Source: a virus
DNA: 38,992 nt
Strand: one strand, 5' to 3'
Virus record (IMG/VR): IMGVR_UViG_3300045988_152050
Shown one piece after another: positions 1-38,363 of the stretch. The notes beneath the pieces are model-generated. The model was not told the origin of the DNA. It did not search any database and saw only the letters and a program-made list of their open reading frames with translations. A program made the translations under genes and the position numbers. Positions within the stretch are counted from its first letter, which is position 1, and each line of letters starts with the position of its first letter.

Positions 1-161
1 AAATAGGCTCATCAGGGGACTCCGCTCAAATAGGCTCATCAGGGGACTACGCTAAAATAGGCTCATCAGGGGACTACGCTAAAATAGGCTCATCAGGGTA
101 CTCTGCTCAAATAGGCTCATCAGGGGACTACGCTCAAATAGATAGTACAGGAGAAAAGGCA
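1..161 (+). repeat. 27-bp (9-codon) tandem repeat, left-edge copies: about 5 near-identical units plus 1 degenerate unit
   Basis: Unit aaataggctcatcaggggacTCcgct recurs with period 27. Variation is limited to a few positions (aaa/caa, gac/tac, tcc/tac/tct). The last unit (135..161) is degenerate. Confidence 0.95.
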
Positions 162-761
162 GTGGTTTCAGCAATAGGATTTAGAGCGGTCGCTAAGGCT
201 AAGGTTGGTTCGTGGATAACTCTTGCAGAGTATAAAATAGATGAAAACAAAAGGTGGGTTGTTGATTTTGTAAAAACTGAATATGTGGACGGTGAAAAAA
301 GAAAAGGAGATACTTTTTACTGCCTGTATAAACATGAATTTAGAAAATATGTAGATTATGATAAAATACCAGCAGCGGTATTGAATTATAGAAAAGGTGT
401 TTACAAAGTTGTAACATTTGATGATGTTGTAAGAGGAGAAATAACATATATTGTTGAAAAAGATGGTGTTTACTCGCATGGCAAAACCATTAAAGAGGCA
501 AGAGAAAGTTTTATTTATAAAATAAGCAATCGTGATACATCGGCTTTTGGAAATATGACACTTGATACAGTTGTTAGTTTTGAAGAAGCGGTAAAAATGT
601 ATAGGGTTATTACTGGAGCTTGTGAATTTGGAACAAAGAGTTTTGTAAACAGGCTAGAAAAGGTAAAAAAAGAATATACTGTTGCTGAAATAATTAAACT
701 AACAACAGGACAATATGGAGCTGATACTTTCAAAAACTTTTTCAAGGAAAAAAACCAATGA
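3..761 (+). CDS. C-terminal part of a junction-spanning nonapeptide-repeat protein (N-terminal part is 38714..38992)
   Basis: The frame starting at nt 3 is open from the window edge. It reads IGSSGDSA QIGSSGDYA KIGSSGDYA KIGSSGYSA QIGSSGDYA QIDSTGEKA and continues into track ORF 162..761. It has the same repeat and phase as the ORF that runs off the right edge. Confidence 0.8.
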   Translation: MGSSGDSAQIGSSGDYAKIGSSGDYAKIGSSGYSAQIGSSGDYAQIDSTGEKAVVSAIGFRAVAKAKVGSWITLAEYKIDENKRWVVDFVKTEYVDGEKRKGDTFYCLYKHEFRKYVDYDKIPAAVLNYRKGVYKVVTFDDVVRGEITYIVEKDGVYSHGKTIKEARESFIYKISNRDTSAFGNMTLDTVVSFEEAVKMYRVITGACEFGTKSFVNRLEKVKKEYTVAEIIKLTTGQYGADTFKNFFKEKNQ

Positions 762-917
762 GCAATAACGCACCTGATTATGAAGATGATTTAGTCTTTC
801 CTCCACATAACCGACCTTGCACAACTAACATCAGTATTATCTAACTTGGATGATCTGATCATCGAAGAAAAATATAAAGAAGAACAACAGAAAAAAGAAA
901 AGTAATACAACATTACC

Positions 918-939
918 CCGGGGCGGCTACCCGCCCCGG
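918..939 (+). terminator. GC-rich perfect hairpin (9-bp stem ccggggcgg/ccgccccgg, loop ctac) with no downstream T-run; possible terminator or RNA-processing site
   Basis: Perfect inverted repeat read directly from the sequence in the intergenic gap between the repeat gene and ORF 960. No U-tract follows on the + strand. Confidence 0.3.
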
Positions 940-959
940 CAGATAAAGGAAACAAACAA

Positions 960-1259
960 ATGACAAACATAATCACCGGCTACGTTGTTTGCCCCCTATT
1001 ACCACTCACCCGAAACGCTTTCATTGTCTATCCGACAGAAGAGGAAGCACAGATGTGGGGGGTACCGCAAAAAGTCTGCGTCGCTATGGCAAAAGAATTG
1101 TCTCCCCATTTCCGTCTTGTTGGATTTTGGAAAACTGACAAAAGAAACGGCGTTATTGTCGAAACCGACGACGGAGAACAACGGCTGTTATCTCACGAAC
1201 AATATAACGATTTGATGAAAGCCAGAAAATCGAAAGGAAAGAAAAATGAAACCGCTTAA
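960..1259 (+). CDS. hypothetical early protein (99 aa)
   Basis: Track ORF with AAGGA RBS 8 nt upstream. No family recognised. Confidence 0.65.
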   Translation: MTNIITGYVVCPLLPLTRNAFIVYPTEEEAQMWGVPQKVCVAMAKELSPHFRLVGFWKTDKRNGVIVETDDGEQRLLSHEQYNDLMKARKSKGKKNETA

Positions 1260-1527
1260 ACTTGTCTTGACCGACCATTGGTTTGAAGAAATTAAATCCG
1301 GGCGGAAAACTCACGAATACAGAAATTTCACCCCTTATTGGGAAAACAGATTGCAGAAATTTGAGTTTTCACAAGGGTGCTTTGTCTAGTTTCAAAAAGC
1401 ATATCGGAAAAACCCTGAACGTATGGCTTTTAAAATCGACAATATTCGCCTTGTAGGCGGTAAAAACACCGACTTGCATATTGACGGCCTTGTTTTTGAT
1501 ATTGAACTTGGGGAGCGCATTAGATGA
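1246..1527 (+). pseudogene. ASCH/PUA-like domain gene interrupted by an in-frame TAG (1387..1389)
   Basis: My translation from ATG 1246 is MKPLKLVLTDHWFEEIKSGRKTHEYRNFTPYWENRLQKFEFSQGCFV[TAG]FQKAYRKNPERMAFKIDNIRLVGGKNTDLHIDGLVFDIELGERIR. It ends in TGA, overlapping the next start as ATGA at 1524. The WF..I.SG.KT.EYR signature is typical of ASCH-like proteins. Neither half is in the ORF track because of the stop. Confidence 0.55.
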
Positions 1528-1730
1528 CTAAAACCGACCGAGAGATTGAACTTGAGAAAAAGCTTTCGATTGCTGTTAAGGCTTTGAGATATTATGCAAA
1601 TTCTAATTGTTGGGATGATTGTTTCTATAACGGCCGCATAAAAGTTAGCGCTTATTTGCAAACCGCCGGCTATAAAACCGCTCAGCAAGCATTAAAGGAG
1701 ATTGAGAAATGCGTAAAAAATATGGATTAA
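1524..1730 (+). CDS. hypothetical protein (68 aa)
   Basis: Track ORF with ATGA start/stop coupling to the upstream reading frame. Confidence 0.6.
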   Translation: MTKTDREIELEKKLSIAVKALRYYANSNCWDDCFYNGRIKVSAYLQTAGYKTAQQALKEIEKCVKNMD

Positions 1731-1957
1731 CACAGCACGAGCAAAAATTATTAAGTAAAGCTCAATACTACCAAAACAAAGCCGCTGAAATGCACAGAAA
1801 ATTTGCCGATAGTCTACAAAATAGGTTTTACAATTCAACCACAATCAGCGAGTTTGAAGAGTGGGATTTATGGACGTTGAACGAAAGCGGGGATTGTTCA
1901 GGAACTGAACAGGAAGCACTGTTTTGGCGAAAAGTAAAAGAGGAGGAGGAAGACTAA
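1709..1957 (+). CDS. hypothetical protein (82 aa)
   Basis: Track ORF with AAGGAG RBS upstream of ATG 1709. Confidence 0.6.
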   Translation: MRKKYGLTQHEQKLLSKAQYYQNKAAEMHRKFADSLQNRFYNSTTISEFEEWDLWTLNESGDCSGTEQEALFWRKVKEEEED

Positions 1958-2355
1958 TGGCATATTTAGAAGAACTGCTGCCCGAGTTCAGAAAAGGGGC
2001 CAAGATTAGAAAGAAAAGCTGGGATAAAAGAGATTATTCTTATTATAAGGATGGACGTATTTACGACCAGAACAATCAAGCTATGTATAGTTTTTCTGCT
2101 AAAGCTCTTTCGTATGACGGTTGGGAATTTTATAAAGAACCCGAACCGAACTGGCAATACATCATCGAGAACAAATGCCTTTGCTGGTTTTGGGATAATT
2201 GCGATAAAGAGGACCGGCAACGTGCAAGGTGCTTAAGTGATTTTATTCCAAATAAAACAACTCCATTCTTAGATGAAGCAGGTTATTTTTGGCCTTATTG
2301 CCGTCCTGTCCGCAAAGATGAAGTAACTTTTTATGAGGAGAGAAAAGATGAGTAG
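1957..2355 (+). CDS. DUF2829 (Tad2-like) N-terminal domain protein, Cys/Trp-rich C-terminal half
   Basis: Internal ATG at 1957 follows AGGAGGAGGA. The N-terminus MAYLEELLPEFRKGAKIRKKSW ... LSYDGWEFY resembles the DUF2829 pattern (GkkvrR.gW ... DWe). This assignment is from memory of the family. Confidence 0.45.
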   Translation: MAYLEELLPEFRKGAKIRKKSWDKRDYSYYKDGRIYDQNNQAMYSFSAKALSYDGWEFYKEPEPNWQYIIENKCLCWFWDNCDKEDRQRARCLSDFIPNKTTPFLDEAGYFWPYCRPVRKDEVTFYEERKDE

Positions 2356-2524
2356 ACTAATTGCATTATGGTTAATAGATACAGCAGTTATGATTAACCT
2401 TGGTTTTATTGGATTTATTTTGTGTGTATTTGGTTTTGTTTTATATCCGATTAAACCTGCTAGGCAATTTTGCGGAAACAACGATAAAACACCACCACAA
2501 ACCCACAAAAACACCCCTTGTTGA
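2348..2524 (+). CDS. small membrane protein (58 aa)
   Basis: GAGGAG RBS 7 nt before ATG 2348. Hydrophobic stretch LIALWLIDTAVMINLGFIGFILCVFGFVLY. Confidence 0.5.
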   Translation: MSRLIALWLIDTAVMINLGFIGFILCVFGFVLYPIKPARQFCGNNDKTPPQTHKNTPC

Positions 2525-2545
2525 CAATTGTCGGCTTGGGGTGTT
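2510..2545. promoter_or_regulatory. 36-bp imperfect palindrome (AACACCCCTTGTTGACAA|TTGTCGGCTTGGGGTGTT) at the early/structural boundary
   Basis: The arms pair at 14 of 18 positions by Watson-Crick pairing, plus 2 G-T wobbles and 2 mismatches. The centre is GACAATTGTC. It embeds a TTGACA hexamer and the stop codon of the upstream gene. Confidence 0.5.
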
Positions 2546-2550
2546 AATCT
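2521..2550 (+). promoter_or_regulatory. candidate sigma70-type promoter for the head module (TTGACA, 18 nt, TAATCT)
   Basis: TTGACA at 2521..2526 and TAATCT at 2545..2550, about 30 nt upstream of the protease/scaffold start. Confidence 0.35.
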
Positions 2551-2579
2551 ATCCGCAGAAACAAAAAAGGATTAAACAA

Positions 2580-3770
2580 ATGCTACAAGTTTCAAACAAA
2601 ATAAGAATGTCTATTGGCAACAAGTGGCGAATTGATGATGACGGAATTATGACCGTTAGAGCCAGGGTGTTAAAAGAGGGAGTATATCCCTATTATGCCA
2701 GTGAGTTGCAAGGCCTGAATATTCCGGGCGACAAGGTGGATGTTCTTATTCCGGCAAGCGAATTCACCCCCGAAGCGTTAAAAACTGGCGAGGGTAAGCC
2801 CGTAGTCATTGATGAACACGAATGGCGAACTGTAGAAAATGCCTTGACAGACGGCTATACCAAAGGCTCTGTTGCCGGAGAAATGACAGTAGAAGACAAA
2901 GGCATAATGTGCGACCTCACAATTTTGGATGCACAGACCATTGAAGAAATCAAGAGCGGCATCTTGGTGGAAATTTCTGCCGGATATCGAGCTGATTTTG
3001 AGAAAGAAGACGGCGAGCTAAACGGCCAGCCATATTCTTATGTTCAAAAAAACATTGTGTTCAACCACATTTTGCTTTGTCGCAAAGGCGAGGGCAGATG
3101 CGGAGCCGATGTTAAAGTTATCAACAAAAAAACAGGAGAAACAAAAATGTCTTATACAATTCGCATGAAAATTGGCAATAAAGACAAAGAGATGGAGTTT
3201 TCTTCCAAAGAAGATGCCGACAAGGCTCAAGAAATGGCAAACGAAGCCAGCGAGGCAAAACAAGCTGACATTGACAAAGCCGTTGAGGAAGTAACTTCAT
3301 TGAAAGAACAGGTTGCCGCTTTGAACGCTGACTTGGAAGAAAAGAAATCTTCCATTGAGGAATACAAAGAAAAACTTGAAAATGCTTTGTCTGAAGAAGC
3401 TCAGGAAGAAATTGCCGAAGACCTCATCGCTCAGAAAGAAGCTGAGGAAGCTGTTGTCGATGAAGAAGTTGACGACAAAGACAAAGAGGAAGTTAAAAAT
3501 TCTTTGAAGAATATGAAACGCTCTGAGCGTGCCATGTTCTTGGCCGCCCACGTTATGAACAAGCGTGGCTTGGACATCAAAGAATGGGATGACAATTCTA
3601 AAATTGCATCTTTCATGACCATTGCCGCTGAAGCAAAACAGAAAGTGCAAAACAAAAAAGAATTGAGCAACAACCTCGGCAACGTTAATGGTGCCAAAGT
3701 TGTGAACTCAAAAACCGGAAACAACGGGATGTCTGCAAAAGACCGTATGTTTTCTTGGAAACACAAATAA
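2580..3770 (+). CDS. DUF2213-like prohead protease/scaffolding protein with acidic coiled-coil C-terminal half
   Basis: ATG 2580 lies inside track ORF 2400..3770. The N-terminus RIDDDGIMTVRARVLKEGVYPYYASEL resembles DUF2213. The C-terminus is E/K-rich coiled coil. It lies immediately upstream of the capsid gene. Confidence 0.7.
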   Translation: MLQVSNKIRMSIGNKWRIDDDGIMTVRARVLKEGVYPYYASELQGLNIPGDKVDVLIPASEFTPEALKTGEGKPVVIDEHEWRTVENALTDGYTKGSVAGEMTVEDKGIMCDLTILDAQTIEEIKSGILVEISAGYRADFEKEDGELNGQPYSYVQKNIVFNHILLCRKGEGRCGADVKVINKKTGETKMSYTIRMKIGNKDKEMEFSSKEDADKAQEMANEASEAKQADIDKAVEEVTSLKEQVAALNADLEEKKSSIEEYKEKLENALSEEAQEEIAEDLIAQKEAEEAVVDEEVDDKDKEEVKNSLKNMKRSERAMFLAAHVMNKRGLDIKEWDDNSKIASFMTIAAEAKQKVQNKKELSNNLGNVNGAKVVNSKTGNNGMSAKDRMFSWKHK

Positions 3771-26982: not shown

Positions 26983-29139
26983 ATGAAAATCAGATTGTTA
27001 GAACTTTGTTCCGGATATGGAAGCCAAGCATTGGCTTTGAAAAATTTGGGCATAGACGTTTATTCAGAGATTGCCGAGTTTGATAAATACGCAAGTCAAG
27101 CATATATGCAGTTACACGGCGAAACCAAAAACTATGGCGATATTTACACCATAGATGAAACAAAACTCCCATATTTTGATATGATAACATATTCGACTCC
27201 TTGTTTTACAGAGGATTCTCTTGTTTTAACTGAAAAAAGGGGTTTCCAAAAAATAATTGATATTCAAATAGGTGAAAAAGTTATCACTCACGATGGTAAT
27301 TATAAAACCGTTGAAAATGTTATAAATAACGGTAAGAAAAAAACTGTTAAAATTTATGGTATGGGAATAGATGAAATTCACACAACACCTAATCATCTAT
27401 TTTATGTTAGAGAAAAATCTCACGTTTGGAATAATAAAACTCGTTCTTATACGAGAGTATTTTCCGAACCTGTATGGAAACAAGCCGATTCGTTAAAAAG
27501 AACCGATTATATGGGTATCCCTATTAACAAAAGATCAGAAATACCAGAATGGAATGGTATAACTTTTGTATGGTCTGATGGAAGAAAAGATAGATATAAA
27601 AATCAATTATCACAATATATGAACAACAAAGATTTTTGGTGGTTGATAGGTAGATACATAGCTGACGGATGGTTTAGAAATAACGGTGGAATTATAATTG
27701 GATGTGGCAAAAAGAAATTTGTCGAAATGAAAGAAAAATGTGATTCTATTGGTTTAAATTATAACATATTAGAAGAAAGAACTGTTATTAAATTTTATTA
27801 TCAGTTAAAAGAATTAGAATTGTTTGTACAATCTTTCGGTAAATATGCTTACGGTAAAAAAATACCTTCGTTTGTTATGGATTTACCTGTTGATTTACTA
27901 AATTCTTTTCTCAATGGTTATATGTCTGGAGATGGTTGTTTTACAAACGGAAGATTTAAAGCAACATCTGTAAGTCGTGAGTTAATTTATGGACTAGCAC
28001 AATGTATAGCTAAAGTTTACAAACAACCTTATTCTATTTATAAAACTGAAAGACCTAAAACAACTGTTATTGAGGGGAGAACTGTAAATCAAAAAGATAC
28101 TTATGAATTGTGCTTCAAGAAAGAAAAAAGACCACAAGACAAAGCATTTTATGAAGATGGTTTTATTTGGTTTCCAGTAACTAAAGTTGAAGAAGATGAA
28201 ATTGAAACAGTTTATGATTTAACTGTTGAGGAAAATCATTCATTCACAGTACAAGGAGTTATAGTTCATAATTGCCAAGACTTCTCAGTTGCCGGAAAAG
28301 GAAAAGGCGGCGACAAGGGAAGCGGTACACGTTCAAGCCTTTTGTGGGAATGCGAGCGGATTATTAAAGCGGTTAAGCCAAAATATCTTTTAATGGAAAA
28401 CGTAAAGAACCTTTTGAGCGAAAAACACCGACATAACTTCAATGAATGGTTTAAGGTGCTTGAGGGTATGGGATATACAAACTATTACAAAGTCCTTAAT
28501 GCCAAAGACTACGGCATACCGCAGAACCGGGAGCGTATATTTTGCGTGTCAATCCTTGGCGGTGGCCAATATCTATTCCCAAACCCGAAACCCCTTGAGA
28601 AACGCTTAAAAGATATGTTGGAGGATAATGTCGATGAAAAATATTATTTATCCGACATAAGTGTTAATCGACTTCTTAAACGGAGAGATGGTTCAGGATA
28701 TAAGCCCTGTATAAATGGAGAGGTAGCTGTAACATTAACAACAAAACCTGGACAAAGAAACTCTGATAATTACATACAGGAACCTTTTGTTGTCGCAAGT
28801 CGTGGACGAAACATCGAAAATCCAAGCGACAGAACTATAGGAAGTCCGACCGAGCAAAGACTTGAGATAAACTATACCGGTTGTACAAACACTCTTATAA
28901 GCGTTCAAAAGGATAATTATGTTGTTGAAAACTATCGCATCCGCAAACTTACAGCAAGGGAATGTTTTAGATTGATGGGCGTGAAAGATGAACAGTTTGA
29001 CCGATTGAACGGGATTTCAAATTCGCAACTGTATAAACTTGCCGGAAATAGTATCGTGGTTGACGTTTTGGAAGCAATATTCAAAAATTTACTTATGCCG
29101 GAAACAACCGAAACCAAAGGGCAATTAAGTTTGTTTTGA
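26983..29139 (+). CDS. DNA (cytosine-5)-methyltransferase precursor containing an intein
   Basis: Motif I LCSGYGS, motif IV TP|C-QDFS split by the insert, motif VI ENVKNL, motif VIII QNRERIF and motif X GNSIVV. 718 aa, or 361 aa after removal of the 357-aa insert. Confidence 0.9.
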   Translation: MKIRLLELCSGYGSQALALKNLGIDVYSEIAEFDKYASQAYMQLHGETKNYGDIYTIDETKLPYFDMITYSTPCFTEDSLVLTEKRGFQKIIDIQIGEKVITHDGNYKTVENVINNGKKKTVKIYGMGIDEIHTTPNHLFYVREKSHVWNNKTRSYTRVFSEPVWKQADSLKRTDYMGIPINKRSEIPEWNGITFVWSDGRKDRYKNQLSQYMNNKDFWWLIGRYIADGWFRNNGGIIIGCGKKKFVEMKEKCDSIGLNYNILEERTVIKFYYQLKELELFVQSFGKYAYGKKIPSFVMDLPVDLLNSFLNGYMSGDGCFTNGRFKATSVSRELIYGLAQCIAKVYKQPYSIYKTERPKTTVIEGRTVNQKDTYELCFKKEKRPQDKAFYEDGFIWFPVTKVEEDEIETVYDLTVEENHSFTVQGVIVHNCQDFSVAGKGKGGDKGSGTRSSLLWECERIIKAVKPKYLLMENVKNLLSEKHRHNFNEWFKVLEGMGYTNYYKVLNAKDYGIPQNRERIFCVSILGGGQYLFPNPKPLEKRLKDMLEDNVDEKYYLSDISVNRLLKRRDGSGYKPCINGEVAVTLTTKPGQRNSDNYIQEPFVVASRGRNIENPSDRTIGSPTEQRLEINYTGCTNTLISVQKDNYVVENYRIRKLTARECFRLMGVKDEQFDRLNGISNSQLYKLAGNSIVVDVLEAIFKNLLMPETTETKGQLSLF
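27202..28272 (+). mobile_element. intein with in-frame LAGLIDADG homing endonuclease, inserted at the catalytic Cys of the PCQ motif
   Basis: It starts CFTEDSLVLTEK, has block B TTPNH, and ends VIVHN followed by Cys+1 (tgc 28273). The two LAGLIDADG motifs are WWLIGRYIADGWF and LNSFLNGYMSGDGCF. Confidence 0.85.
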
Positions 29140-29728: not shown

Positions 29729-29778
29729 TTTTATGTTTTTATAGTAATTTTTTTAAGAAACACCAAAAAGGAGAAAAA

Positions 29779-29976
29779 ATGAACGGTAAAAAAGCAAAGC
29801 AGCTCCGCAAAAAAGCCAGAGAATATTCTATTGGCATGCCGGAAGTCGAATATGATCTTACTCAAAAACACATGATTAACCGTCCTGAATTTGATAGACC
29901 GATAATGTGCGGAACGGTTGTCATGAAAGACACATGCACCAGAGCTTTGTATAAACAACTCAAAAGGAGAGTTTAA
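29779..29976 (+). CDS. hypothetical basic protein (65 aa)
   Basis: Track ORF with AAAGGAG RBS. Confidence 0.6.
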   Translation: MNGKKAKQLRKKAREYSIGMPEVEYDLTQKHMINRPEFDRPIMCGTVVMKDTCTRALYKQLKRRV

Positions 29977-29977
29977 C

Positions 29978-30271
29978 ATGTCAAAACCAGAACAAACCAC
30001 TATGATCACCAAAGAAGACGATGAAAAAAACAACATCATCGGCGGCATTGCCGTTGACCGCTTGCGTTCTTTGATTGAACGAATTGAACGGTTGGAAGAA
30101 GAAAAAGCCGGTATTGCATCAGACATCCGAGATGTTTATGCCGAAGCCAAAGGAGCCGGATTTGATGCAAAAGCTATGCGTGCATGCCTTAAGCTTCGCA
30201 AAATGAACGCCGCCGACCGTGACGAGCAGGAGATTTTGCTCGAAACTTATCGCAAAGCACTGGACATCTAA
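29978..30271 (+). CDS. GapR-like (DUF2312/UPF0335) DNA-binding protein
   Basis: LRSLIERIERLEEEKAGIASDIRDVYAEAKGAGFDAKAMRACLKLRKM matches the highly conserved DUF2312 core. Confidence 0.75.
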   Translation: MSKPEQTTMITKEDDEKNNIIGGIAVDRLRSLIERIERLEEEKAGIASDIRDVYAEAKGAGFDAKAMRACLKLRKMNAADRDEQEILLETYRKALDI

Positions 30272-31528: not shown

Positions 31529-32005
31529 ATGGCAAGAGGGCATAAACAAACACTAAAAGTCTACACCTCAGAAGAAGCTCGATTTTATGGTGCTATGGGC
31601 GGCAAAGCATCAGCCGATGCCAGAAGACGAAAGAAAAGCCTGAAAGAACTGACACAAGCCTTGCTTGAAATGAAGCCGCATGAAAAGATAGCCGCAAGGT
31701 CAAAAATGCTTTTTCCGGACGTTGATCCTGAAGATTTGACCAATGGCATGGTGTTGGCAATGGCGATGTTTGACAAGGCGATAAAAGAACAAGATGTAAA
31801 AGCGGCTCAGTTTGTGAGAGATACGGCCGGAGAGATGCCGGAGCAGGTCATAAGCGGCAACCTTGGGCAATCAACTGTCTTTGTTACCGAGCAAGACCAA
31901 AACAATATCATCAAGCATATTCAAGAAGTATTAAATGATGGCCAGTCAAAAACAGAAAAAACAACCAAAAAAGCAAGCAAGCCCAAAAAAGGAACAAAAA
32001 AATAA
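31529..32005 (+). CDS. putative terminase small subunit
   Basis: Basic N-terminus with GGKASADARRRKK, then AIKEQDVKAAQFVRDTAGE. It lies directly upstream of, and overlaps, terL. The assignment is partly positional. Confidence 0.5.
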   Translation: MARGHKQTLKVYTSEEARFYGAMGGKASADARRRKKSLKELTQALLEMKPHEKIAARSKMLFPDVDPEDLTNGMVLAMAMFDKAIKEQDVKAAQFVRDTAGEMPEQVISGNLGQSTVFVTEQDQNNIIKHIQEVLNDGQSKTEKTTKKASKPKKGTKK

Positions 32006-35000
32006 CACCTCTTTATCGGGCGAAATAAACCGAGAATACCTTGGCAAGACTTTGCTTGATGCCGGATTTGAGGTTTGGTTTCGTTATATGTTCCGAGTTC
32101 TTGAGGGCAAGCCTTTTATTATAGACCGTATCCACAAGGATATGTTCCATGTTTTTGATGACCTATATAACCTGCGAATAACTCGCGAATGTATGAACAT
32201 TCCGCCCCGCGCCGGAAAAACAACCCTTTGCAAATATTGGCTCATTTACTGCCTAACCAAAGATCCGCGGTGTAATTTTATTTATACTTCATTCTCGCAA
32301 ATGCTCTTGTCCGACATTGCCCGAGAGGTGGCTCAGATTTTAGAGCATCCGATTTATAAGGAACTATACGGTAACGGCTTGTATGGCGTGGAAGAAAAGG
32401 AAGAAAACCCGATTGATGACTTCTGGCGTGAATATCTGCTGAAAGAAACAGGGAGGGCCGTGTATGCCAGCAAACGCATCATCACCGCAAAAGGCGGACA
32501 AATTCTGTTTGCGTCCATCGGGTCGACAATCACCGGTTTTGGTGCCGGCATAAGAGGAGCAAAAGGCTTCTCCGGGGCGTTAATCTGTTTTCCGTACGAC
32601 GAATTAGTTTTAACGGAAAAAGGATATAGAAAGATTGGCGAAATTGTTGAAAATAAAGAGGATATAAAAGTTTGGAGTTATAATTTTGAGAAAGAAAGAC
32701 CAGAGCTTAAACGCATAGAAAGACATATTAAAAACATAACCCCTACTAAACAATGCTTTGTTGAAGTCAAATTAAGTAATGGAAAGAGCTTTATTTGCAC
32801 AGATAATCACAAAGTATGGACAAAGAATAGGGGCTATGTTGAAGCAAAGGATTTAACAAGTATAGATTGTGTTGTTACCTTTTCTAATCCTTTTTATTTG
32901 GTTAATACTAAGGTTAAAAATTTTTGCAACTTCTTGTCTGGGAATGTTCTTATCTCTGATTTTTTCCAAAGCATCAGAAGAAAGTTCAATCTTTTTTCTG
33001 GGCGTATAGTTAATTTCTTTAACAAAATTTTTGAAACTTTTTCTTGTTTTGATTGCTTGAACAGTTCCGGGATGACAATTAAAAGCAAGAGCAATCTCTT
33101 TCAAACTTCCTTTTGCTTTAGCAATTTCTTCAACATCTTTTCGAGAAAGTTTGGAACGAGAAAAAACCAAAGTACCAAGTTCAACAGCATCTTGCATATT
33201 TTCCGATTTAGTGCCATATCGCAAATTTTCAAGACGATCGTCAGATGGATTGCTATTAAGGTGTCTAACTTCTATTCCTTTTTGTTGCACGCCAACGAAA
33301 GCCCACAAAACAAGTTGATGAACACCAATGGTAAGGGTTTTATTATCTTTTCGAAGATTAACAACCTTGTAACCTTTTCTATTAGAGGGATTAAGTCGTT
33401 TTTCTTTGAGCTTAATAATTCTTCTTTTATCTCCGCTTCCCGTAAATACATCTCTAGAGCAGCTTATAACATCTCCAAAATTGGAAACTCTATAAAGTCC
33501 ATCATATCCGGGGATGTCTTTGTAAATAATATTAGCGTTGTTTGTCATAATCACACCTCTTATTGTCTTACTGTGTATGAAAATCATAATCTGTATGTTG
33601 GTAAATGTCGAGTATTAGTTTCTAATTGCGATGATGCCAACAAGCCGGCCGATATTCAATCTGAGGTTATGCGCGAAAAAGTCCGCAAATATTACGATGA
33701 AACCTTGCTCTCACGATTGAACGACAGTAACGTGCCGATATTTAACATTCAGCAAAGGCTCCACCTTGGCGATTTGTCCGGATATTTGCTTGAACAATAC
33801 AAATTTGACAGCATCATAAAGCCGTTGCTTGAACCGGACGGCACATGCAACATCGCAAGCCAATACACCCCAGAGCGTATCAAAGAAATCTCATTCAATG
33901 ATACCATGTTCCAAGCACAATATCAGCAATCACCGGTAGCCGAAAAAGGCAACATCATCCAACGTGATTGGTGGGGAATGTATGATGCCGACCACACCCC
34001 GATTGATGGCAAGCTGATAATAACGGCCGATACGGCATACAAAAAGACCAAGACCGCCGACTATTCATGTTTCCAAGTTTGGGAGCTTTTACGCAAAGAG
34101 ATGCGTTTGCGTGATATGATTGTCGGTAAATGGGAATTCCCCGAACTTTTGGAAAAAGCCACCCAGATATGGCGGAAGTGGACAGACGACAGCTTAATCA
34201 ATCCGGCCGCATTTATGTACATTGAAGACAAAGCATCCGGCATCAGCTTGGAGCAAACGCTCATCCAATCCGGCATCAATGCCATTTGTTGGAAGCCAAA
34301 GGAATATGACTACCCAGAGGACAAGGTCGGCAGAACAAGAGAGCTTTCATGGGATGTGTACCGTGGTCTTGTAAAATTGAAAAAAGATGATAAAATGAGC
34401 CAGTATCTCGTCAACGAAGCAGCATTGTTTGCCGAAGACATGTCGCACTCTCATGATGACAGCTGTTTTGTCGCGGGAACAAAAGTAGCCACTATTTGGG
34501 GAAATAAAAACATAGAGGACTTAAAGGTTGGCGATTTAGTCATAACCCCTTGGGGGCTTTCTCCGATAACACGAACAACGAGCAGGATGAAAAAGGTCAT
34601 TAATAATATTGGATTAACCGGAACTAAAGACCACAAAATATACACAACACACGATTATTCTTTTGACAGCCTTGAAAATGTTGATTATTCTATGGTTAGT
34701 AAATTAACCATAGAGGAATTAATCTCATGGCAAATAAAATCTTTATACTGTTCAATGGCAAAAAATACTATCGTAACCCAAAGACAGGATATTATGAAAA
34801 TAAAATCTTTGCTTACGGAAAAAGAAAAACATTCCGGCTTCATCGGGTTGTGTATGAATTTTATTCGGGAAAAGAAATTCCTAAAGGCTATCACATTCAT
34901 CACAAAGACGAAAATAAAGATAATAACGATTTTAGCAATTTGGTTCTTTTATCAAGCAGTGAACACGCTAAACTTCATGGCAAAAAAACCGCTGAAATTT

Positions 35001-35372
35001 GGAAAAGACCTGAAATGCAAGAAGCAAATAAAAGAGGTAGAGAAATGTGCAAAGAGTGGCATCGCTCAAAAGAGGGGAGAGATTGGCACTCAAAACATCA
35101 AAAAGAATACATTGCCAAACTTCATATTACTAAAATATGTCCCGATTGCGGAAGAAGATTTAATACCCCAAACGACCACAGAGAGCAGACAATATGTCGA
35201 TGGTGTCGAGATAAGTACCTTAAAAGAGAACTACGCAGGAAAGCCAAAGAAAAGGGTTTATAATATAACAGTTCGAGCTGGTTGCTATTATGCAAATAAT
35301 ATTTTAGTATCAAATTGTGATGCAGCATCAATGGCCCATTCTATTTGGAGATACGCCGGGGGCGGACAATAA
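31935..35372 (+). CDS. terL: terminase large subunit precursor carrying two inteins (1145 aa; about 514 aa after splicing)
   Basis: Walker A PPRAGKTT. Removing the inserts restores GALI-CDDANKP (Walker B-like) and SHSHDDS-CDAASMAH (nuclease acidic motif). It is a single uninterrupted track ORF. Confidence 0.85.
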   Translation: MMASQKQKKQPKKQASPKKEQKNNTSLSGEINREYLGKTLLDAGFEVWFRYMFRVLEGKPFIIDRIHKDMFHVFDDLYNLRITRECMNIPPRAGKTTLCKYWLIYCLTKDPRCNFIYTSFSQMLLSDIAREVAQILEHPIYKELYGNGLYGVEEKEENPIDDFWREYLLKETGRAVYASKRIITAKGGQILFASIGSTITGFGAGIRGAKGFSGALICFPYDELVLTEKGYRKIGEIVENKEDIKVWSYNFEKERPELKRIERHIKNITPTKQCFVEVKLSNGKSFICTDNHKVWTKNRGYVEAKDLTSIDCVVTFSNPFYLVNTKVKNFCNFLSGNVLISDFFQSIRRKFNLFSGRIVNFFNKIFETFSCFDCLNSSGMTIKSKSNLFQTSFCFSNFFNIFSRKFGTRKNQSTKFNSILHIFRFSAISQIFKTIVRWIAIKVSNFYSFLLHANESPQNKLMNTNGKGFIIFSKINNLVTFSIRGIKSFFFELNNSSFISASRKYISRAAYNISKIGNSIKSIISGDVFVNNISVVCHNHTSYCLTVYENHNLYVGKCRVLVSNCDDANKPADIQSEVMREKVRKYYDETLLSRLNDSNVPIFNIQQRLHLGDLSGYLLEQYKFDSIIKPLLEPDGTCNIASQYTPERIKEISFNDTMFQAQYQQSPVAEKGNIIQRDWWGMYDADHTPIDGKLIITADTAYKKTKTADYSCFQVWELLRKEMRLRDMIVGKWEFPELLEKATQIWRKWTDDSLINPAAFMYIEDKASGISLEQTLIQSGINAICWKPKEYDYPEDKVGRTRELSWDVYRGLVKLKKDDKMSQYLVNEAALFAEDMSHSHDDSCFVAGTKVATIWGNKNIEDLKVGDLVITPWGLSPITRTTSRMKKVINNIGLTGTKDHKIYTTHDYSFDSLENVDYSMVSKLTIEELISWQIKSLYCSMAKNTIVTQRQDIMKIKSLLTEKEKHSGFIGLCMNFIREKKFLKAITFITKTKIKIITILAIWFFYQAVNTLNFMAKKPLKFGKDLKCKKQIKEVEKCAKSGIAQKRGEIGTQNIKKNTLPNFILLKYVPIAEEDLIPQTTTESRQYVDGVEISTLKENYAGKPKKRVYNITVRAGCYYANNILVSNCDAASMAHSIWRYAGGGQ
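32853..33548 (-). CDS. free-standing HNH homing endonuclease (NUMOD4 + HNH_3 + C-terminal HTH) encoded antisense inside TerL intein 1
   Basis: IPGYDGLYRVSNFGDV matches NUMOD4 and VHQLVLWAFVG...EVRHLNSNPSDDRLENLRYGTKSENMQD matches HNH_3. AAGAGGTG RBS lies 5 nt before ATG 33548. Its codons are exactly aligned with the forward TerL codons. Confidence 0.85.
   Translation of the reverse strand: MTNNANIIYKDIPGYDGLYRVSNFGDVISCSRDVFTGSGDKRRIIKLKEKRLNPSNRKGYKVVNLRKDNKTLTIGVHQLVLWAFVGVQQKGIEVRHLNSNPSDDRLENLRYGTKSENMQDAVELGTLVFSRSKLSRKDVEEIAKAKGSLKEIALAFNCHPGTVQAIKTRKSFKNFVKEINYTPRKKIELSSDALEKIRDKNIPRQEVAKIFNLSINQIKRIRKGNNTIYTC
33583..33611 (-). promoter_or_regulatory. candidate minus-strand promoter for the antisense HNH gene (TCGACA, 17 nt, TATGAT)
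   Basis: The reverse complement of 33606..33611 is TCGACA and that of 33583..33588 is TATGAT. It lies about 35 nt upstream of the HNH start codon. Confidence 0.3.
34464..35315 (+). mobile_element. TerL intein 2 (284 aa): Hint splicing blocks flanking an out-of-frame HNH gene
   Basis: It starts CFVAGTKVATIWG, has block B GTKDHKIYT, and has the C-terminal block VYNITVRAGCYYANNILVSN followed by Cys+1 (tgt 35316). Confidence 0.8.
34727..35263 (+). CDS. free-standing HNH endonuclease with C-terminal zinc ribbon, overprinted in a second forward frame inside TerL intein 2
   Basis: LHRVVYEFYSGKEIPKGYHIHHKDENKDNNDFSNLVLLSSSEHAKLH is an HNH motif, and CPDC...CRWC is a zinc ribbon. AGAGGA RBS lies 9 nt before ATG 34727. 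The frame is offset by 2 nt from terL. Confidence 0.85.
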   Translation: MANKIFILFNGKKYYRNPKTGYYENKIFAYGKRKTFRLHRVVYEFYSGKEIPKGYHIHHKDENKDNNDFSNLVLLSSSEHAKLHGKKTAEIWKRPEMQEANKRGREMCKEWHRSKEGRDWHSKHQKEYIAKLHITKICPDCGRRFNTPNDHREQTICRWCRDKYLKRELRRKAKEKGL

Positions 35373-35383
35373 AGGAAACACCA

Positions 35384-36847
35384 ATGACACGAAGAAACAA
35401 AAACAAATCGCAAAAAGTTGCTAACACCATTTTAACCGGAGCCGGAGCAAACACCACGCAAGACCGTGGAAGCCAGCAAACGGCGGCCATATATTCACGC
35501 AACCCATATTTTAGAAACGACTTTTACAGCCGTTGGCAAGAGTGGGTGCGTTGGTACAATACCAGTTGGGAAGCCGGAAAAATTGTGGATATTCCTGTGC
35601 AAGATGCATTCCGCATTCCGGTAAAGATTACCGGACTTGAACAACCGGACATTGAAGCCATCGAGAAGTACATGAAATATCTTGATGTCAACAACAACTT
35701 CAAGCGAGCCGCCACCATTGAGCGATTGCTTGGCGGTTGTGTCATTATTGTTGGTGTGAAAGATGAAAACGACAACCCGGAATCAGTTCTTGACCTAAAA
35801 AGACTAAAACAAGGCGGCATTACGTTCTTAAATGTCATCACAACCGAAAAAATCACGAAATGCGAATATGAAACAGACGTATTCAGCCCGGAATATGACA
35901 AGCCGAAATATTACATGATAAACGGCATAAAGACCCACGTCAGCCGATTGATTGTCTTTGATGGCGACCCATTGTTTAATCATACATCCATGAACCTTTT
36001 GCAAAACTTCCGCTACAATCCGGCAGGCTTTGGCGAGAGCGTATTATCCAGATTATATGATAGCCTTGTCCGTGCCACCGGAACGCAAGAGGGAGCATAT
36101 CACCTTGTGAACCTTGCCAGTGTTCTCTTGGTCAAATGCGAACGCTTTATTGACCTGCAAGCCACCAGACAAGGCAATGCCGCATTGAATATGCTTGATA
36201 AGATTGCCGAGCAACTGAGCATATATCGTGGAGCGGTTATTGATGGCAAAGGAACAGAGATAGCTCAACACTCCGCAACATTTGGCAGCGTGCCGGAGCT
36301 TTTGAACACATACCTACAAATTCTTGCGGCCGGCTCCGATATTCCGGCAACTCGTTTCTTGGGCGATAGTCCGTCAGGCTTAAACTCCACCGGAGAGAGC
36401 GACCTTGAAAACTACTACAACAATGTTGACAGCTACCAAACCACACGCTTGGAGCCAAAATATCGCAAAATGCTTGATATTATCGGCTCTTGCATTTGGG
36501 GCTTTAATGTCTGGAAAGAAAAATCGCAAAACCTAGAACTTGAGTTTGAGCCGCTTTGGAACATCAACAAAATGGATCAGGCAACTGTTGACAAGACCAG
36601 AGCAGACATTCTCCGTCAGTTCAAAGAAGACGGCATCATCAGCGACAAGCAATACGCCGAAGAAATCAATAGCAAGAAAATTCTTGATATTGAGCTGGAC
36701 GTTGAAGAATATGACGAAGACCGAGAAGAATTGATTGACGGCTCAGACATCCCCAGCTTGCGAGATGAAACCGACCGAGTAATTGATACCATAGGAGCTA
36801 AGCCGAATGTCGATAGCGGTGTTAAACAAGAAACCGGACAAGGTTAA
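35384..36847 (+). CDS. portal protein (DUF1073-like)
   Basis: About 487 aa, located directly after terL and before the Mu F-like gene. ATG 35384 follows AAAGGA. Confidence 0.75.
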   Translation: MTRRNKNKSQKVANTILTGAGANTTQDRGSQQTAAIYSRNPYFRNDFYSRWQEWVRWYNTSWEAGKIVDIPVQDAFRIPVKITGLEQPDIEAIEKYMKYLDVNNNFKRAATIERLLGGCVIIVGVKDENDNPESVLDLKRLKQGGITFLNVITTEKITKCEYETDVFSPEYDKPKYYMINGIKTHVSRLIVFDGDPLFNHTSMNLLQNFRYNPAGFGESVLSRLYDSLVRATGTQEGAYHLVNLASVLLVKCERFIDLQATRQGNAALNMLDKIAEQLSIYRGAVIDGKGTEIAQHSATFGSVPELLNTYLQILAAGSDIPATRFLGDSPSGLNSTGESDLENYYNNVDSYQTTRLEPKYRKMLDIIGSCIWGFNVWKEKSQNLELEFEPLWNINKMDQATVDKTRADILRQFKEDGIISDKQYAEEINSKKILDIELDVEEYDEDREELIDGSDIPSLRDETDRVIDTIGAKPNVDSGVKQETGQG

Positions 36848-37703
36848 AAAGAGCCAAAAGGCTAATCCGATAAAAACCCCGAAGACTTTGGAAGATGACG
36901 CTCGGATAAGCATTAACAAGATTGTGCGTGAGGTAAACGCCGAACTCCGCGCCATTTCGGATAATGCGAAGACGAACACGCCGGAGCAGACCGCCGCGCT
37001 CTTAAACGACTTCAAGCGCAGATGGCGGGTTATTATTGAGCCAATAGCCGATAAAATCAGCAAAGAGTGGGTAAAAGCCATTGATGAAAACAACTATGAA
37101 AAAACAATGGCTATGCTTCGTAAAGCCTTTGGCGTAGATATTGTCACTATATTGGAAGACAAAGACATCGCCGACACGCTTGAAGCCATGCGCCTCAACA
37201 TGGTAAACCTGATTGTAACCATACCGGAAGAAGCATTAAAAAGGGTTTCTCTGCGTATTTATGAAAACTACCAAGGGATACCTATGCCGGAAAACCGCAC
37301 GCTCCAGCAACAAATAAGCCAAGAGTTCAAAACAACATACAGGCAAGCCAAAGTCATCGCGCGCGACCAAACCGCCAAAGTCAATGCGTCATTAAATAAA
37401 ATCCGGCAGCAAAAGCTCGGCGTTGATATTTACATCTGGCAGACAATGAGAGATAGCCGGGTTGTCGGAAAGCCGGGCGGATTATACCCTAAAGGCAATG
37501 ACGCGCACGGCAACCACTACATTATGCAGGGTTTATACTGCAAATACAGCGACCAGACAGTATTTTCTACCGACGGCAAGACATGGCGGAAAAGGACGGC
37601 GACAATGCCAAAGGGCGAGCCGGGGACAGATATTCAATGCCGATGCTTTGCCGAACCGGTTTTATATTGGGAAGCCGTCAAAAAAAATCTTGTCGTGGCC
37701 TAA
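36807..37703 (+). CDS. Mu F / SPP1 gp7-like head morphogenesis protein
   Basis: C-terminal IWQTMRDSRVVGKPG...HGNHY...GEPGTDIQCRC matches the Phage_Mu_F signature. Confidence 0.75.
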   Translation: MSIAVLNKKPDKVKKSQKANPIKTPKTLEDDARISINKIVREVNAELRAISDNAKTNTPEQTAALLNDFKRRWRVIIEPIADKISKEWVKAIDENNYEKTMAMLRKAFGVDIVTILEDKDIADTLEAMRLNMVNLIVTIPEEALKRVSLRIYENYQGIPMPENRTLQQQISQEFKTTYRQAKVIARDQTAKVNASLNKIRQQKLGVDIYIWQTMRDSRVVGKPGGLYPKGNDAHGNHYIMQGLYCKYSDQTVFSTDGKTWRKRTATMPKGEPGTDIQCRCFAEPVLYWEAVKKNLVVA

Positions 37704-37712
37704 GAAAATCAA

Positions 37713-37740
37713 GCACTCTGTAAAAAGAGTGCATTTTTTT
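37713..37740 (+). terminator. Rho-independent terminator after the packaging genes
   Basis: Stem gcactct/agagtgc, loop gtaaaa, then aT7. Confidence 0.75.
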
Positions 37741-37761
37741 GCATAAATTATAAAAAAGTGC

Positions 37762-37790
37762 TTGCATATTACAATTATTTGTTATAACGT
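37762..37790 (+). promoter_or_regulatory. promoter of the TTGACAATTAC family (TTGCATATTAC, 17 nt, TAACGT)
   Basis: Hexamers at 37762..37767 and 37785..37790. Confidence 0.5.
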
Positions 37791-37821
37791 AAAGGACATA
37801 AAGACAATGAAAGGCTAAGAA

Positions 37822-38070
37822 ATGAGCAAAGAAAACTACAACAAACTTTTTTCTTGGTTCGAGGAAAACAAGTTTGAAAACGAGGGAGATTATCCCAGAG
37901 ATACGAACCTTGTATTCAGCTTTATGGATTATCTCGATAAAGCCGAGAACGAAGAAGAAATCGCCGATAAACTTGGCTTGGAATACAACGAAGAAACCGA
38001 AAGCTATGTCGGACTTGAGCAAGCCAAAGAAGAAATAACGAAAGGATGTACCACATGGCTGAACAGTTAG
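37822..38070 (+). CDS. small acidic hypothetical protein (82 aa)
   Basis: Track ORF with a GAAAGG RBS. Confidence 0.6.
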   Translation: MSKENYNKLFSWFEENKFENEGDYPRDTNLVFSFMDYLDKAENEEEIADKLGLEYNEETESYVGLEQAKEEITKGCTTWLNS

Positions 38071-38363
38071 ATAAATATGAGCTTGAGAGAAAAATCGAAA
38101 AGCTCGAGTTCCAAATTGAGACTTTGACCAAGCAAGCGGAACAAGATAACAAGATGATCGACAGGCAAGCCGATTTGAACTGTCGGTTGGAAGAAAAACT
38201 GAATAAAGCCATGGAAGCATTGGAAACGATTAAAACAGCAGCTACGTTTGGCAGAATAAAGGGATTGAACGTTGGTACACCTGACGGAATGAAATTGAAG
38301 TCAATAGCAAACTTGGCAGAAAAAGCAATTAAACAGATTAAAGGAGAAGATGACAATGATTAA
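38055..38363 (+). CDS. coiled-coil hypothetical protein
   Basis: Track ORF 38046..38363. ATG 38055 is better spaced from AAAGGA. Confidence 0.6.
   Translation: MAEQLDKYELERKIEKLEFQIETLTKQAEQDNKMIDRQADLNCRLEEKLNKAMEALETIKTAATFGRIKGLNVGTPDGMKLKSIANLAEKAIKQIKGEDDND

Follow-up and report, generated by a model that had tools for sequence, protein, structure and literature searches.

Inteins whose homing endonuclease is encoded outside the reading frame of the host protein have been known since 1998. A preprint by Gosselin, Arsenault and Gogarten (bioRxiv 10.1101/2025.01.02.630785) credits antisense LAGLIDADG endonucleases in the inteins of Synechocystis DnaX and of a Chloroflexus SpoVR-like protein to Gorbalenya 1998 and Gogarten 2002. 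The authors of the preprint themselves reported antisense LAGLIDADG, antisense VSR-like, and out-of-frame EndoVII-like ("frame 3") endonucleases in actinophage inteins, including those of the large terminase subunit, TerL; their lists contain HNH endonucleases as in-frame domains only, and the term "codon usage" does not occur in the paper. Furthermore, Phillips et al. described a LAGLIDADG endonuclease in a +2 open reading frame (ORF) of a cyanobacterial dnaX intein, with frame-dependent ratios of nonsynonymous to synonymous substitution rates (dN/dS) (bioRxiv 10.64898/2026.09.14.751524). An out-of-frame HNH gene was found in the DNA methylase insertion of phage ShiLan, which has no detectable splicing domain and is thought to be retained in the protein (Arsenault et al. 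2025; PMC11855218). In the fractured genes of Dassa et al. 2009, a free-standing GIY-YIG or Vsr-like endonuclease gene lies between the halves of a split intein, and a terminase is among the examples (PMC2677866). Here, we analyzed 38,992 nucleotides of viral DNA (IMG/VR record IMGVR_UViG_3300045988_152050), the whole of which is referred to as the window, and focused on its terL gene. We consider it likely that this gene carries non-canonical inteins whose homing endonuclease has a gene of its own, lodged in the endonuclease slot, in place of an in-frame domain, a reading that takes in translation through the nested gene, splicing, homing, and decay.

The terL precursor is encoded by a single ORF (31935..35372, plus strand; 1145 amino acids, stop counted). 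Excision of two inserts leaves a predicted spliced product of 514 amino acids, which matched PHROG 38 (terminase large subunit) over residues 27-509 (E = 4e-77). Intein 1 (32586..33626, plus strand; 347 amino acids) is of class-1 type, with Cys1, block B TDNH, a C-terminal Asn, and a +1 Cys; it starts with CFPYDEL and finishes with RVLVSN. It is inserted in Walker B of TerL (GALI↓(I/C)DDANKP, the arrow marking the insertion point here and below), at residue 217 of the spliced protein. The empty allele of this site reads ...GGAGCCTTAATC↓ATAGACGATGCGAAC... at the nucleotide level and GALI↓IDDANKP in the protein. A search of the PDB with spliced TerL returned nothing even at E ≤ 1; in the absence of a solved structure on which to place it, Walker B is assigned from the motif and the empty allele.

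A sequence-only reading of this DNA had proposed a Hint-type intein at this position, a middle part devoid of endonuclease motifs in the forward direction, and a minus-strand NUMOD4 and HNH_3 gene with its own ribosome binding site and ATG, and these proposals were borne out. The Pfam family Intein_splicing (PF14890, cutoff 35.8 bits) matched the TerL precursor at amino acids 225-554 (E = 6e-15, 55.8 bits), covering all of the insert except for a large internal gap, as well as isolated intein 1 (E = 2.4e-13, 50.6 bits). C1, T72, and H75 were invariant in the intein alignment. The splicing blocks lie in an N-terminal region (blocks A and B; 32586..32852, plus strand) and a C-terminal region (blocks F and G, ending VLVSN; 33549..33626, plus strand). 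The forward translation between them is a linker rich in F, S, N, K, and I, for which no endonuclease family was matched in Pfam or PHROG.

The opposite strand of the same DNA contains HNH1 (32853..33548, minus strand; 231 amino acids), an I-HmuI-like homing endonuclease gene that is antisense to terL and codon-aligned with it, positions 32853-55 reading TTA in the forward and TAA in the reverse direction. Both its NUMOD4 (E = 1.9e-11) and its HNH_3 (E = 9.6e-11) matches exceeded the Pfam cutoffs, and the protein matched PHROG HNH endonuclease families (E = 4e-41) and, by sequence, I-HmuI (PDB 1U3E; E = 3.6e-9). An AlphaFold2 (AF2) model built with 44 homologues had a predicted local distance difference test score (pLDDT) of 88.8, and I-HmuI was its only significant PDB neighbor in Foldseek (E = 2.2e-7). 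Residues H96, N108, and N117 were invariant among the 44 homologues. At the C terminus, several helix-turn-helix families matched at 1e-4 to 1e-2, all under the curated Pfam cutoffs, and the model showed helical bundles at residues 136-222 (pLDDT 81-95). A Shine-Dalgarno sequence read from the DNA, AAGAGGTG (33554..33561, minus strand), precedes the ATG at 33548 by 5 nucleotides and falls within the block-F codons (NHTSY) of intein 1.

The locus resembles the inteins of Gosselin et al. in that an endonuclease ORF lies antisense in the slot of a phage TerL intein, the host frame remains open, there are signs of ongoing horizontal transfer, and free-standing relatives exist. It differs from them in the endonuclease, which is NUMOD4 plus HNH_3 as opposed to LAGLIDADG, VSR-like, or EndoVII-like; in the hosts, which are TerLs of gut, freshwater-type, coliphage, and Clostridium phage origin and not of actinophages; and in that TTA, CTA, and TCA are shown to be avoided altogether, free-standing genes serving as the control. 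As in the fractured genes, an endonuclease gene of free-standing type separates blocks B and F of an intein in a phage gene; there, two ORFs are joined by trans-splicing, whereas here the frame is continuous, the precursor is predicted to splice in cis, and the endonuclease is HNH. Like ShiLan, it has a hidden out-of-frame HNH in an open host frame and seemingly active homing, but it has Hint blocks on both sides of the nested gene. I-HmuI, the intron-encoded HNH nicking enzyme of Bacillus phage SPO1, was the best and only significant solved-structure match of HNH1 and also of HNH2, a second nested gene described below. I-HmuI and HNH1 have in common an N-terminal beta DNA-binding part and the H-N-N catalytic motif; they differ in the residue before the catalytic His (RH in HNH1, DH in I-HmuI), and I-HmuI resides in a group I intron, whereas HNH1 and HNH2 reside in inteins.

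The sequence-only reading knew of no intein translated through the antisense of its own endonuclease gene, and on this point it is superseded by the precedents of Gorbalenya 1998 and Gosselin et al. 2025. Our literature search retrieved no account of an intein with an HNH gene lying antisense or out of frame within it. The architecture is thus old, and what appears to be unreported is HNH in this role, both antisense and shifted by 2 nucleotides, with up to three such genes per terL.

Codon use and selection in the overlapping frames

In the codon-aligned antisense phase, a stop can arise only opposite a TTA, CTA, or TCA codon, so that an open frame can be attained by synonymous changes without amino acid cost. 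A recount of HNH1 gave the same numbers as the sequence-only reading, namely 18 Leu codons (CTT 12, TTG 5, CTC 1) and 16 Ser codons, with none of the three critical codons. That reading had also called TTA common in an AT-rich genome; the first part stands, since TTA and CTA account for 24% of Leu codons (and TCA for 18% of Ser codons) in the other genes of the window, but the genome is only moderately AT-rich, with a GC content of 41% (30-36% in both inserts, 42-47% in their flanks). When codons for the HNH1 protein were resampled according to window usage, the TerL frame was open in 0.03% of the trials (P ~3e-4), with 7.4 stops expected. The longest comparable antisense stop-free run in 38 other gene segments of the window was 162 codons, as compared with 231 for HNH1.

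Free-standing relatives of HNH1 provided a natural control. TTA, CTA, and TCA made up 0 of the 253 Leu and Ser codons in the nested genes, which are homologues from nine diverged lineages with 32-87% identity, as compared with 39 of 126 in five free-standing relatives (Fisher p = 2e-21, a value that overstates independence because the nested lineages share ancestry). The free-standing genes contained 11 (L029, 50% identical to HNH1), 6 (L029b), 9 (L036), 10 (L002), and 3 (L003) such codons. An HNH match filed under "thymidylate synthase" in Acinetobacter phages was considered as a nested case and rejected; the gene stands by itself downstream of thyA and served as a control.

So as not to favor open TerL frames, loci were sought by the HNH protein alone. 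In 14 of the 15 loci found in this way, the TerL frame was open and the HNH gene lay antisense and codon-aligned in a TerL intein. Every nested homologue retrieved with the HNH protein (32-100% identity) was antisense, codon-aligned, and located in a TerL intein, and these homologues reached three very different TerL lineages, represented by L020, by L022, L024, and L031, and by L030. The exception was the metagenome contig L018 (OOCS01002008.1), in which a 10-nucleotide deletion within the HNH1 overlap, corresponding to window positions 33023..33032, breaks both the HNH and the terL frames; the deletion may stem from faulty assembly or mark a defective allele. Gene calls suggested that L030 and L031 carry fractured terL genes; this was rejected, since translation gave one continuous TerL frame and the splits were gene-caller artifacts. 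Gene callers treated the nested HNH inconsistently, either calling a long terL and hiding the HNH or calling the HNH and cutting terL into fracture-like pieces.

The relative L010, in which intein 1 shows ~13.6% nucleotide divergence with both frames kept, indicates which frame is selected where. Differences at TerL codon positions 1/2/3 numbered 6/5/24 in the N-terminal splicing region, where the TerL frame is the selected one, 54/17/23 in the HNH1 overlap, and 2/3/9 in the C-terminal splicing region. TerL position 1 corresponds to HNH1 position 3, so the 54 differences in the overlap fall on HNH1 third positions. In line with this, amino acid identity in the overlap was 87.5% in the HNH frame and 75% in the TerL frame. 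Third positions thus vary by the HNH frame within the overlap and by the TerL frame outside it, which argues that the HNH protein is the selected product in the overlap and that the TerL frame there is merely kept open. As far as substitutions can tell, they show that the HNH frame is under purifying selection and that the TerL frame over HNH is kept free of stops and is not conserved as protein. Judging from codon use, the layout is non-random, and the open TerL frame is maintained by selection, as the sequence-only reading had argued on the basis of its codon count; the resampling and the contrast between nested and free-standing genes agree with it. Its view that this is neither a split intein nor a dead gene likewise fits the single continuous ORF and the selected HNH frame.

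A second intein, a third insertion site, and isolated phages

The same terL gene contains a further intein with a nested endonuclease gene, which the sequence-only reading had not included. Intein 2 (34464..35315, plus strand; 284 amino acids) starts with CFVAGTKV, has block B TKDH, and ends with NNILVSN followed by a +1 Cys. It interrupts the TerL nuclease domain at residue 496 of the spliced protein (HDDS↓(V/C)D(S/A)ASMA). Its sole Pfam match was Hint_2 (PF13403) in the N-terminal part, at 22-26 bits and under the cutoff of 28.4, and it matched PHROG 30251, a TerL family that contains intein 2 (E = 6.5e-26). HNH2 (34727..35263, plus strand; 178 amino acids) is an HNH_3 gene offset by 2 nucleotides from the TerL frame and preceded by the ribosome binding site GAGGA (34713..34717, plus strand). 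It matched Pfam HNH_3 (E = 1.5e-15), I-HmuI (E = 3.1e-8), and a PHROG HNH family (E = 7e-28). Translated in the TerL frame, the HNH2 overlap matched two families, PHROG 30251 (TerL) and PHROG 35162 (unknown function).

The TerL frame is free of stops over HNH2; given the HNH2 protein, it remained open in 5-8% of codon resamplings (P = 0.05-0.08). Variable sites fell on HNH2 codon positions 1/2/3 in the ratio 4/2/13 (13 of 19 at third positions), and the comparison with L025 gave 14/9/23 (23 of 46 at third positions), with 90% identity in HNH2 and 81% in the TerL frame. Intein 2 and HNH2 share with the EndoVII-like "frame 3" gene of Gosselin et al. and with the dnaX +2 ORF of Phillips et al. 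the same-strand location, the 2-nucleotide offset, frame-dependent selection, and an upstream ribosome binding site. They differ from both in that the nested enzyme is HNH_3 and that the host is TerL, at its C-terminal nuclease motif.

A protein search with the precursor gave 176 relatives. The 120 that were listed range from 647 to 1278 amino acids, each being a continuous ORF. They carry inserts at three sites of spliced TerL: residue 203 (137 or 328 amino acids), residue 217 (347 amino acids as in intein 1, also 193, 182, and 235), and residue 496 (284 amino acids as in intein 2, and one of 265). Empty alleles (L004-L006) read TGFG↓AGIRG, GALI↓IDDANKP, and HDDS↓VDSASMA, respectively; the +1 residue is Cys only in the presence of an intein, and the empty alleles have Ala (site 203), Ile, and Val. 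Alleles with and without the insert, which the sequence-only reading had suggested looking for, thus exist. The TerL of IMG/VR contig 3300045988_128984 carries intein 1 only.

The intein at site 203, found in relatives L011, L013, L009, and L023, lies 14 amino acids upstream of intein 1 and is its paralogue; in L011 it occupies 2098..3081, with the HNH gene on the minus strand at 2359..3003. The 328-amino-acid form contains an antisense, codon-aligned HNH gene (214 amino acids, 37% identical to HNH1) with 13 Leu codons (12 of them CTT) and 13 Ser codons, among them no TTA, CTA, or TCA. This intein ends in HN, unlike inteins 1 and 2, which end in SN. Of the 68 site-203 inteins among the listed TerL relatives, 59 are 137-amino-acid minis. 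Read in antisense, such a mini encodes MITVDNIDYFPIPEF fused to IRHYF.TH and a stop, corresponding to the first 15 and the last 8 codons of the HNH gene. The retention of both gene ends identifies the mini as a product of HNH loss and not as a precursor, which speaks against the idea of the sequence-only reading that the locus is an intermediate of the invasion of a mini-intein by an endonuclease gene. An ancient invasion of this kind is possible, given free-standing relatives with 50% identity.

Three alleles at site 217 have lost 462, 495, and 336 nucleotides of the HNH core, all multiples of 3, and the 495-nucleotide deletion is flanked by direct repeats of 13-15 nucleotides. Furthermore, intein 1 showed 99.9-100% nucleotide identity between genomes whose N- and C-exteins are 88-95% identical, a classic sign of recent homing. 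The coexistence of empty alleles, in-frame HNH deletions, and identical inteins in diverged exteins points to an active homing cycle. One terL family with three sites would thus present the whole of this cycle, from empty and invaded alleles through identical inteins in diverged exteins to HNH deletion and minis. The most divergent extein stretch was the first 60 nucleotides 3' of intein 1 (33627..33686), with 80-88% identity as compared with 86-100% for the inteins there, and may represent a recombination boundary or target-site variation. There was no sign of a co-conversion tract downstream of intein 1 and no clear gradient.

The arrangement is also present in isolated phages. The isolated Escherichia phage BUCT618 (L032/L035, OM735461.1), whose 38-kb genome is complete, has only one TerL gene (20..2389, minus strand), which contains an intein (GFGG↓CFPAS...VVSN↓CIIIDDP) with an antisense, codon-aligned NUMOD4-HNH ORF (~1001..1672, plus strand; 223 codons). 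This ORF has 20 Leu and 13 Ser codons and again no TTA, CTA, or TCA. In the isolated Clostridium difficile phage phiCDHM19 (L034, LK985322.1), TerL gp2 (443..2842) has a counterpart of intein 2 that is homologous to it, as is the out-of-frame HNH gene inside (2056..2721). Both GenBank records state "terminase large subunit" only, leaving the HNH gene and, for BUCT618, the intein unannotated, and no report of inteins in BUCT618, phiCD119, or phiCDHM19 was found in the literature. For phiCD119 (L033, AY855346.1, 778..2595), the record assigns the corresponding region to a truncated ter2 and a hypothetical ORF3. A natural split intein was considered for phiCD119 and rejected, since six alternating single-base indels separate it from phiCDHM19 in DNA that is otherwise ~100% identical; these breaks are probably sequencing errors in the 2005 record. 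Since BUCT618 infects E. coli, it offers a tractable system for splicing across an antisense-encoded linker, HNH expression, and homing.

Proposed mechanism and alternative explanations

We propose that ribosomes read terL through the HNH region, which would yield a linker of ~230 amino acids, probably unstructured, between the Hint halves. The intein would then splice in cis, leaving a Cys scar and restoring TerL. The HNH protein would be made from its own ribosome binding site, perhaps from its own promoter, and during co-infection it would nick or cut intein-less terL, repair of which would copy in the intein together with the HNH gene. A stop in the TerL frame would kill the phage, which would explain the codon avoidance: TTA, CTA, and TCA would be unused in the nested HNH family because each of them would end translation of an essential gene encoded by the opposite strand. 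After fixation of the allele, the HNH gene would decay by in-frame deletion to mini-inteins. Suggestive promoter candidates of sigma-70-like type lie upstream of HNH1 (33583..33611, minus strand; TCGACA-17-TATGAT, 10 of 12 matches) and of HNH2 (34663..34691, plus strand; TTGACA-17-TATTCT, 10 of 12 matches), and two of the three best sites in a scan of the region were directly upstream of these genes.

Several points weigh against this proposal. The total number of promoter-like sites in the region equaled the expectation from shuffled sequence and did not exceed it, and expression of HNH1 would have to run antisense within a late, heavily transcribed gene. The penultimate His of block G ("HN") is not present in inteins 1 and 2; this residue is common in inteins and not universal. 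An AF2 model of forward-frame intein 1, made from a shallow alignment of 11 sequences, had a pLDDT of 34.8, so that the Hint fold around the linker has no structural confirmation and a disorder of the linker is likewise neither supported nor contradicted. The three in-frame deletion alleles were found by way of long TerL proteins, and their in-frame status is thus partly a matter of sampling. The broken locus L018 and the shared ancestry behind the Fisher p value belong here as well. Finally, splicing, HNH expression, and HNH cleavage are steps that we infer from sequence.

Among the alternatives, the one that survives best is that the inteins still undergo splicing but the nested HNH genes have lost the ability to home, persisting as relics within an essential gene by vertical inheritance. 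The loss of the HNH gene from many alleles (the 59 of 68 site-203 minis and the three site-217 deletion derivatives) is compatible with it, as is the weak promoter evidence. However, a relic would hardly be expected to show purifying selection on the HNH frame, with 87.5% amino acid identity to L010 and changes mostly at third positions, or invariant catalytic H, N, and N residues in 44 homologues, and constraint on the TerL frame alone could not preserve an antisense ORF. Intein 1 copies that are 100% identical in exteins of 88-95% identity, with empty alleles in the same population, also argue against it, and we regard it as improbable.

A second alternative is true dual coding, in which the linker read in the TerL frame has a function of its own, for example as a folded or regulatory domain governing when splicing occurs. 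The frame has been maintained across long evolutionary distances, AF2 gave long helices in the linker, with very low confidence, and the ends of the HNH gene do overlap functional intein block codons. On the other hand, identity in the overlap is lower in the TerL than in the HNH frame (75% versus 87.5%), substitutions are free at forward positions 1 and 3, in-frame losses of 112-165 amino acids, and of 191 amino acids at site 203, are tolerated, and the linker matches no family. We therefore judge a functional linker very unlikely.

Still less likely is that the insert is not spliced out, being either retained in TerL as a tolerated loop or part of a defective terL in a phage that relies on another terminase. 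In its favor, the penultimate His is missing from inteins 1 and 2, and ShiLan, for whose insertion retention has been proposed, provides a precedent (PMC11855218). But the insert splits Walker B (GALI↓IDD), where a loop of 347 amino acids would very probably not be tolerated, all Hint blocks are present, and the +1 Cys occurs with the intein only. Moreover, the terL precursor is the sole TerL ORF in the window, the complete BUCT618 genome likewise has one, and an Rfam scan of 31900..35500 for introns and other RNAs gave no match. It is from the insertion within Walker B, the single terL, and the same architecture in BUCT618 and phiCDHM19 that we infer autocatalytic splicing. The last alternative, that the open TerL frame is a chance result of the codon-aligned antisense phase, which as a rule has fewer stops than any other alternative frame and in which other window genes reach runs of up to 162 codons, or that the minus-strand ORF is the shadow of a real forward domain, is refuted within the limits of sequence evidence by the resampling for HNH1 alone (P = 3e-4), the contrast between 0/253 and 39/126, the persistence of the arrangement in unrelated TerLs with HNH identities as low as 32%, the strong NUMOD4, HNH_3, and I-HmuI matches and confident fold of the minus-strand ORF, and the substitution pattern that marks the HNH frame as selected.

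Inteins with nested, actively homing HNH genes thus remain our preferred explanation of the terL locus. More tentatively, and with more doubt than confidence on our part, codon-aligned antisense nesting could be the standard, ancient lifestyle of an I-HmuI-like HNH clade in terminase inteins, extending over human-gut and other metagenome phages and coliphage BUCT618, with a same-strand version in C. difficile phages. The nested genes would then escape annotation as gene callers suppress ORFs that are antisense within a longer ORF, and the codon-aligned antisense phase would be favored as the one alternative phase whose stops can be removed by synonymous change alone. Lying antisense might in addition make HNH expression independent of the late transcription of terL, or set its timing relative to that transcription. 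If this holds, many of the large inteins for which no endonuclease, or only an unknown linker, is on record would carry cryptic off-frame homing endonuclease genes.

The data add the HNH family to the off-frame endonucleases of inteins and extend this class beyond actinophages and cyanobacteria to abundant human-gut phages. They also provide a signature of dual coding, in that three codons common elsewhere are absent from an entire gene family, with its free-standing relatives as a natural control. Since gene callers and GenBank records miss nested nucleases, surveys of intein endonucleases are biased.

Further features of the genome

The terL gene belongs to a human-gut phage lineage. Compared by megablast with 50,697 phage records, terL had no match and hence no near relative among them, and a scan of GTDB genomes for prophage copies or a host of terL found none. 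Spliced TerL reached at most 31% identity with annotated TerL genes of cultured phages (E values down to 2e-43). The only long minus-strand ORFs besides HNH1 are 29731..30126 and 37678..38220, all other genes being on the plus strand; neither matched PHROG, and they may not be genes. The genome carries a further intein in a C-5 cytosine DNA methyltransferase gene (26983..29139, plus strand), inserted at the catalytic PC motif (STP↓CFTEDS...IVHN↓CQDFS). In this canonical intein, LAGLIDADG_3 is encoded in frame (Pfam E = 8e-6) and Intein_splicing is matched as well (E = 6e-12), which offers an internal contrast to the off-frame HNH inteins of terL.

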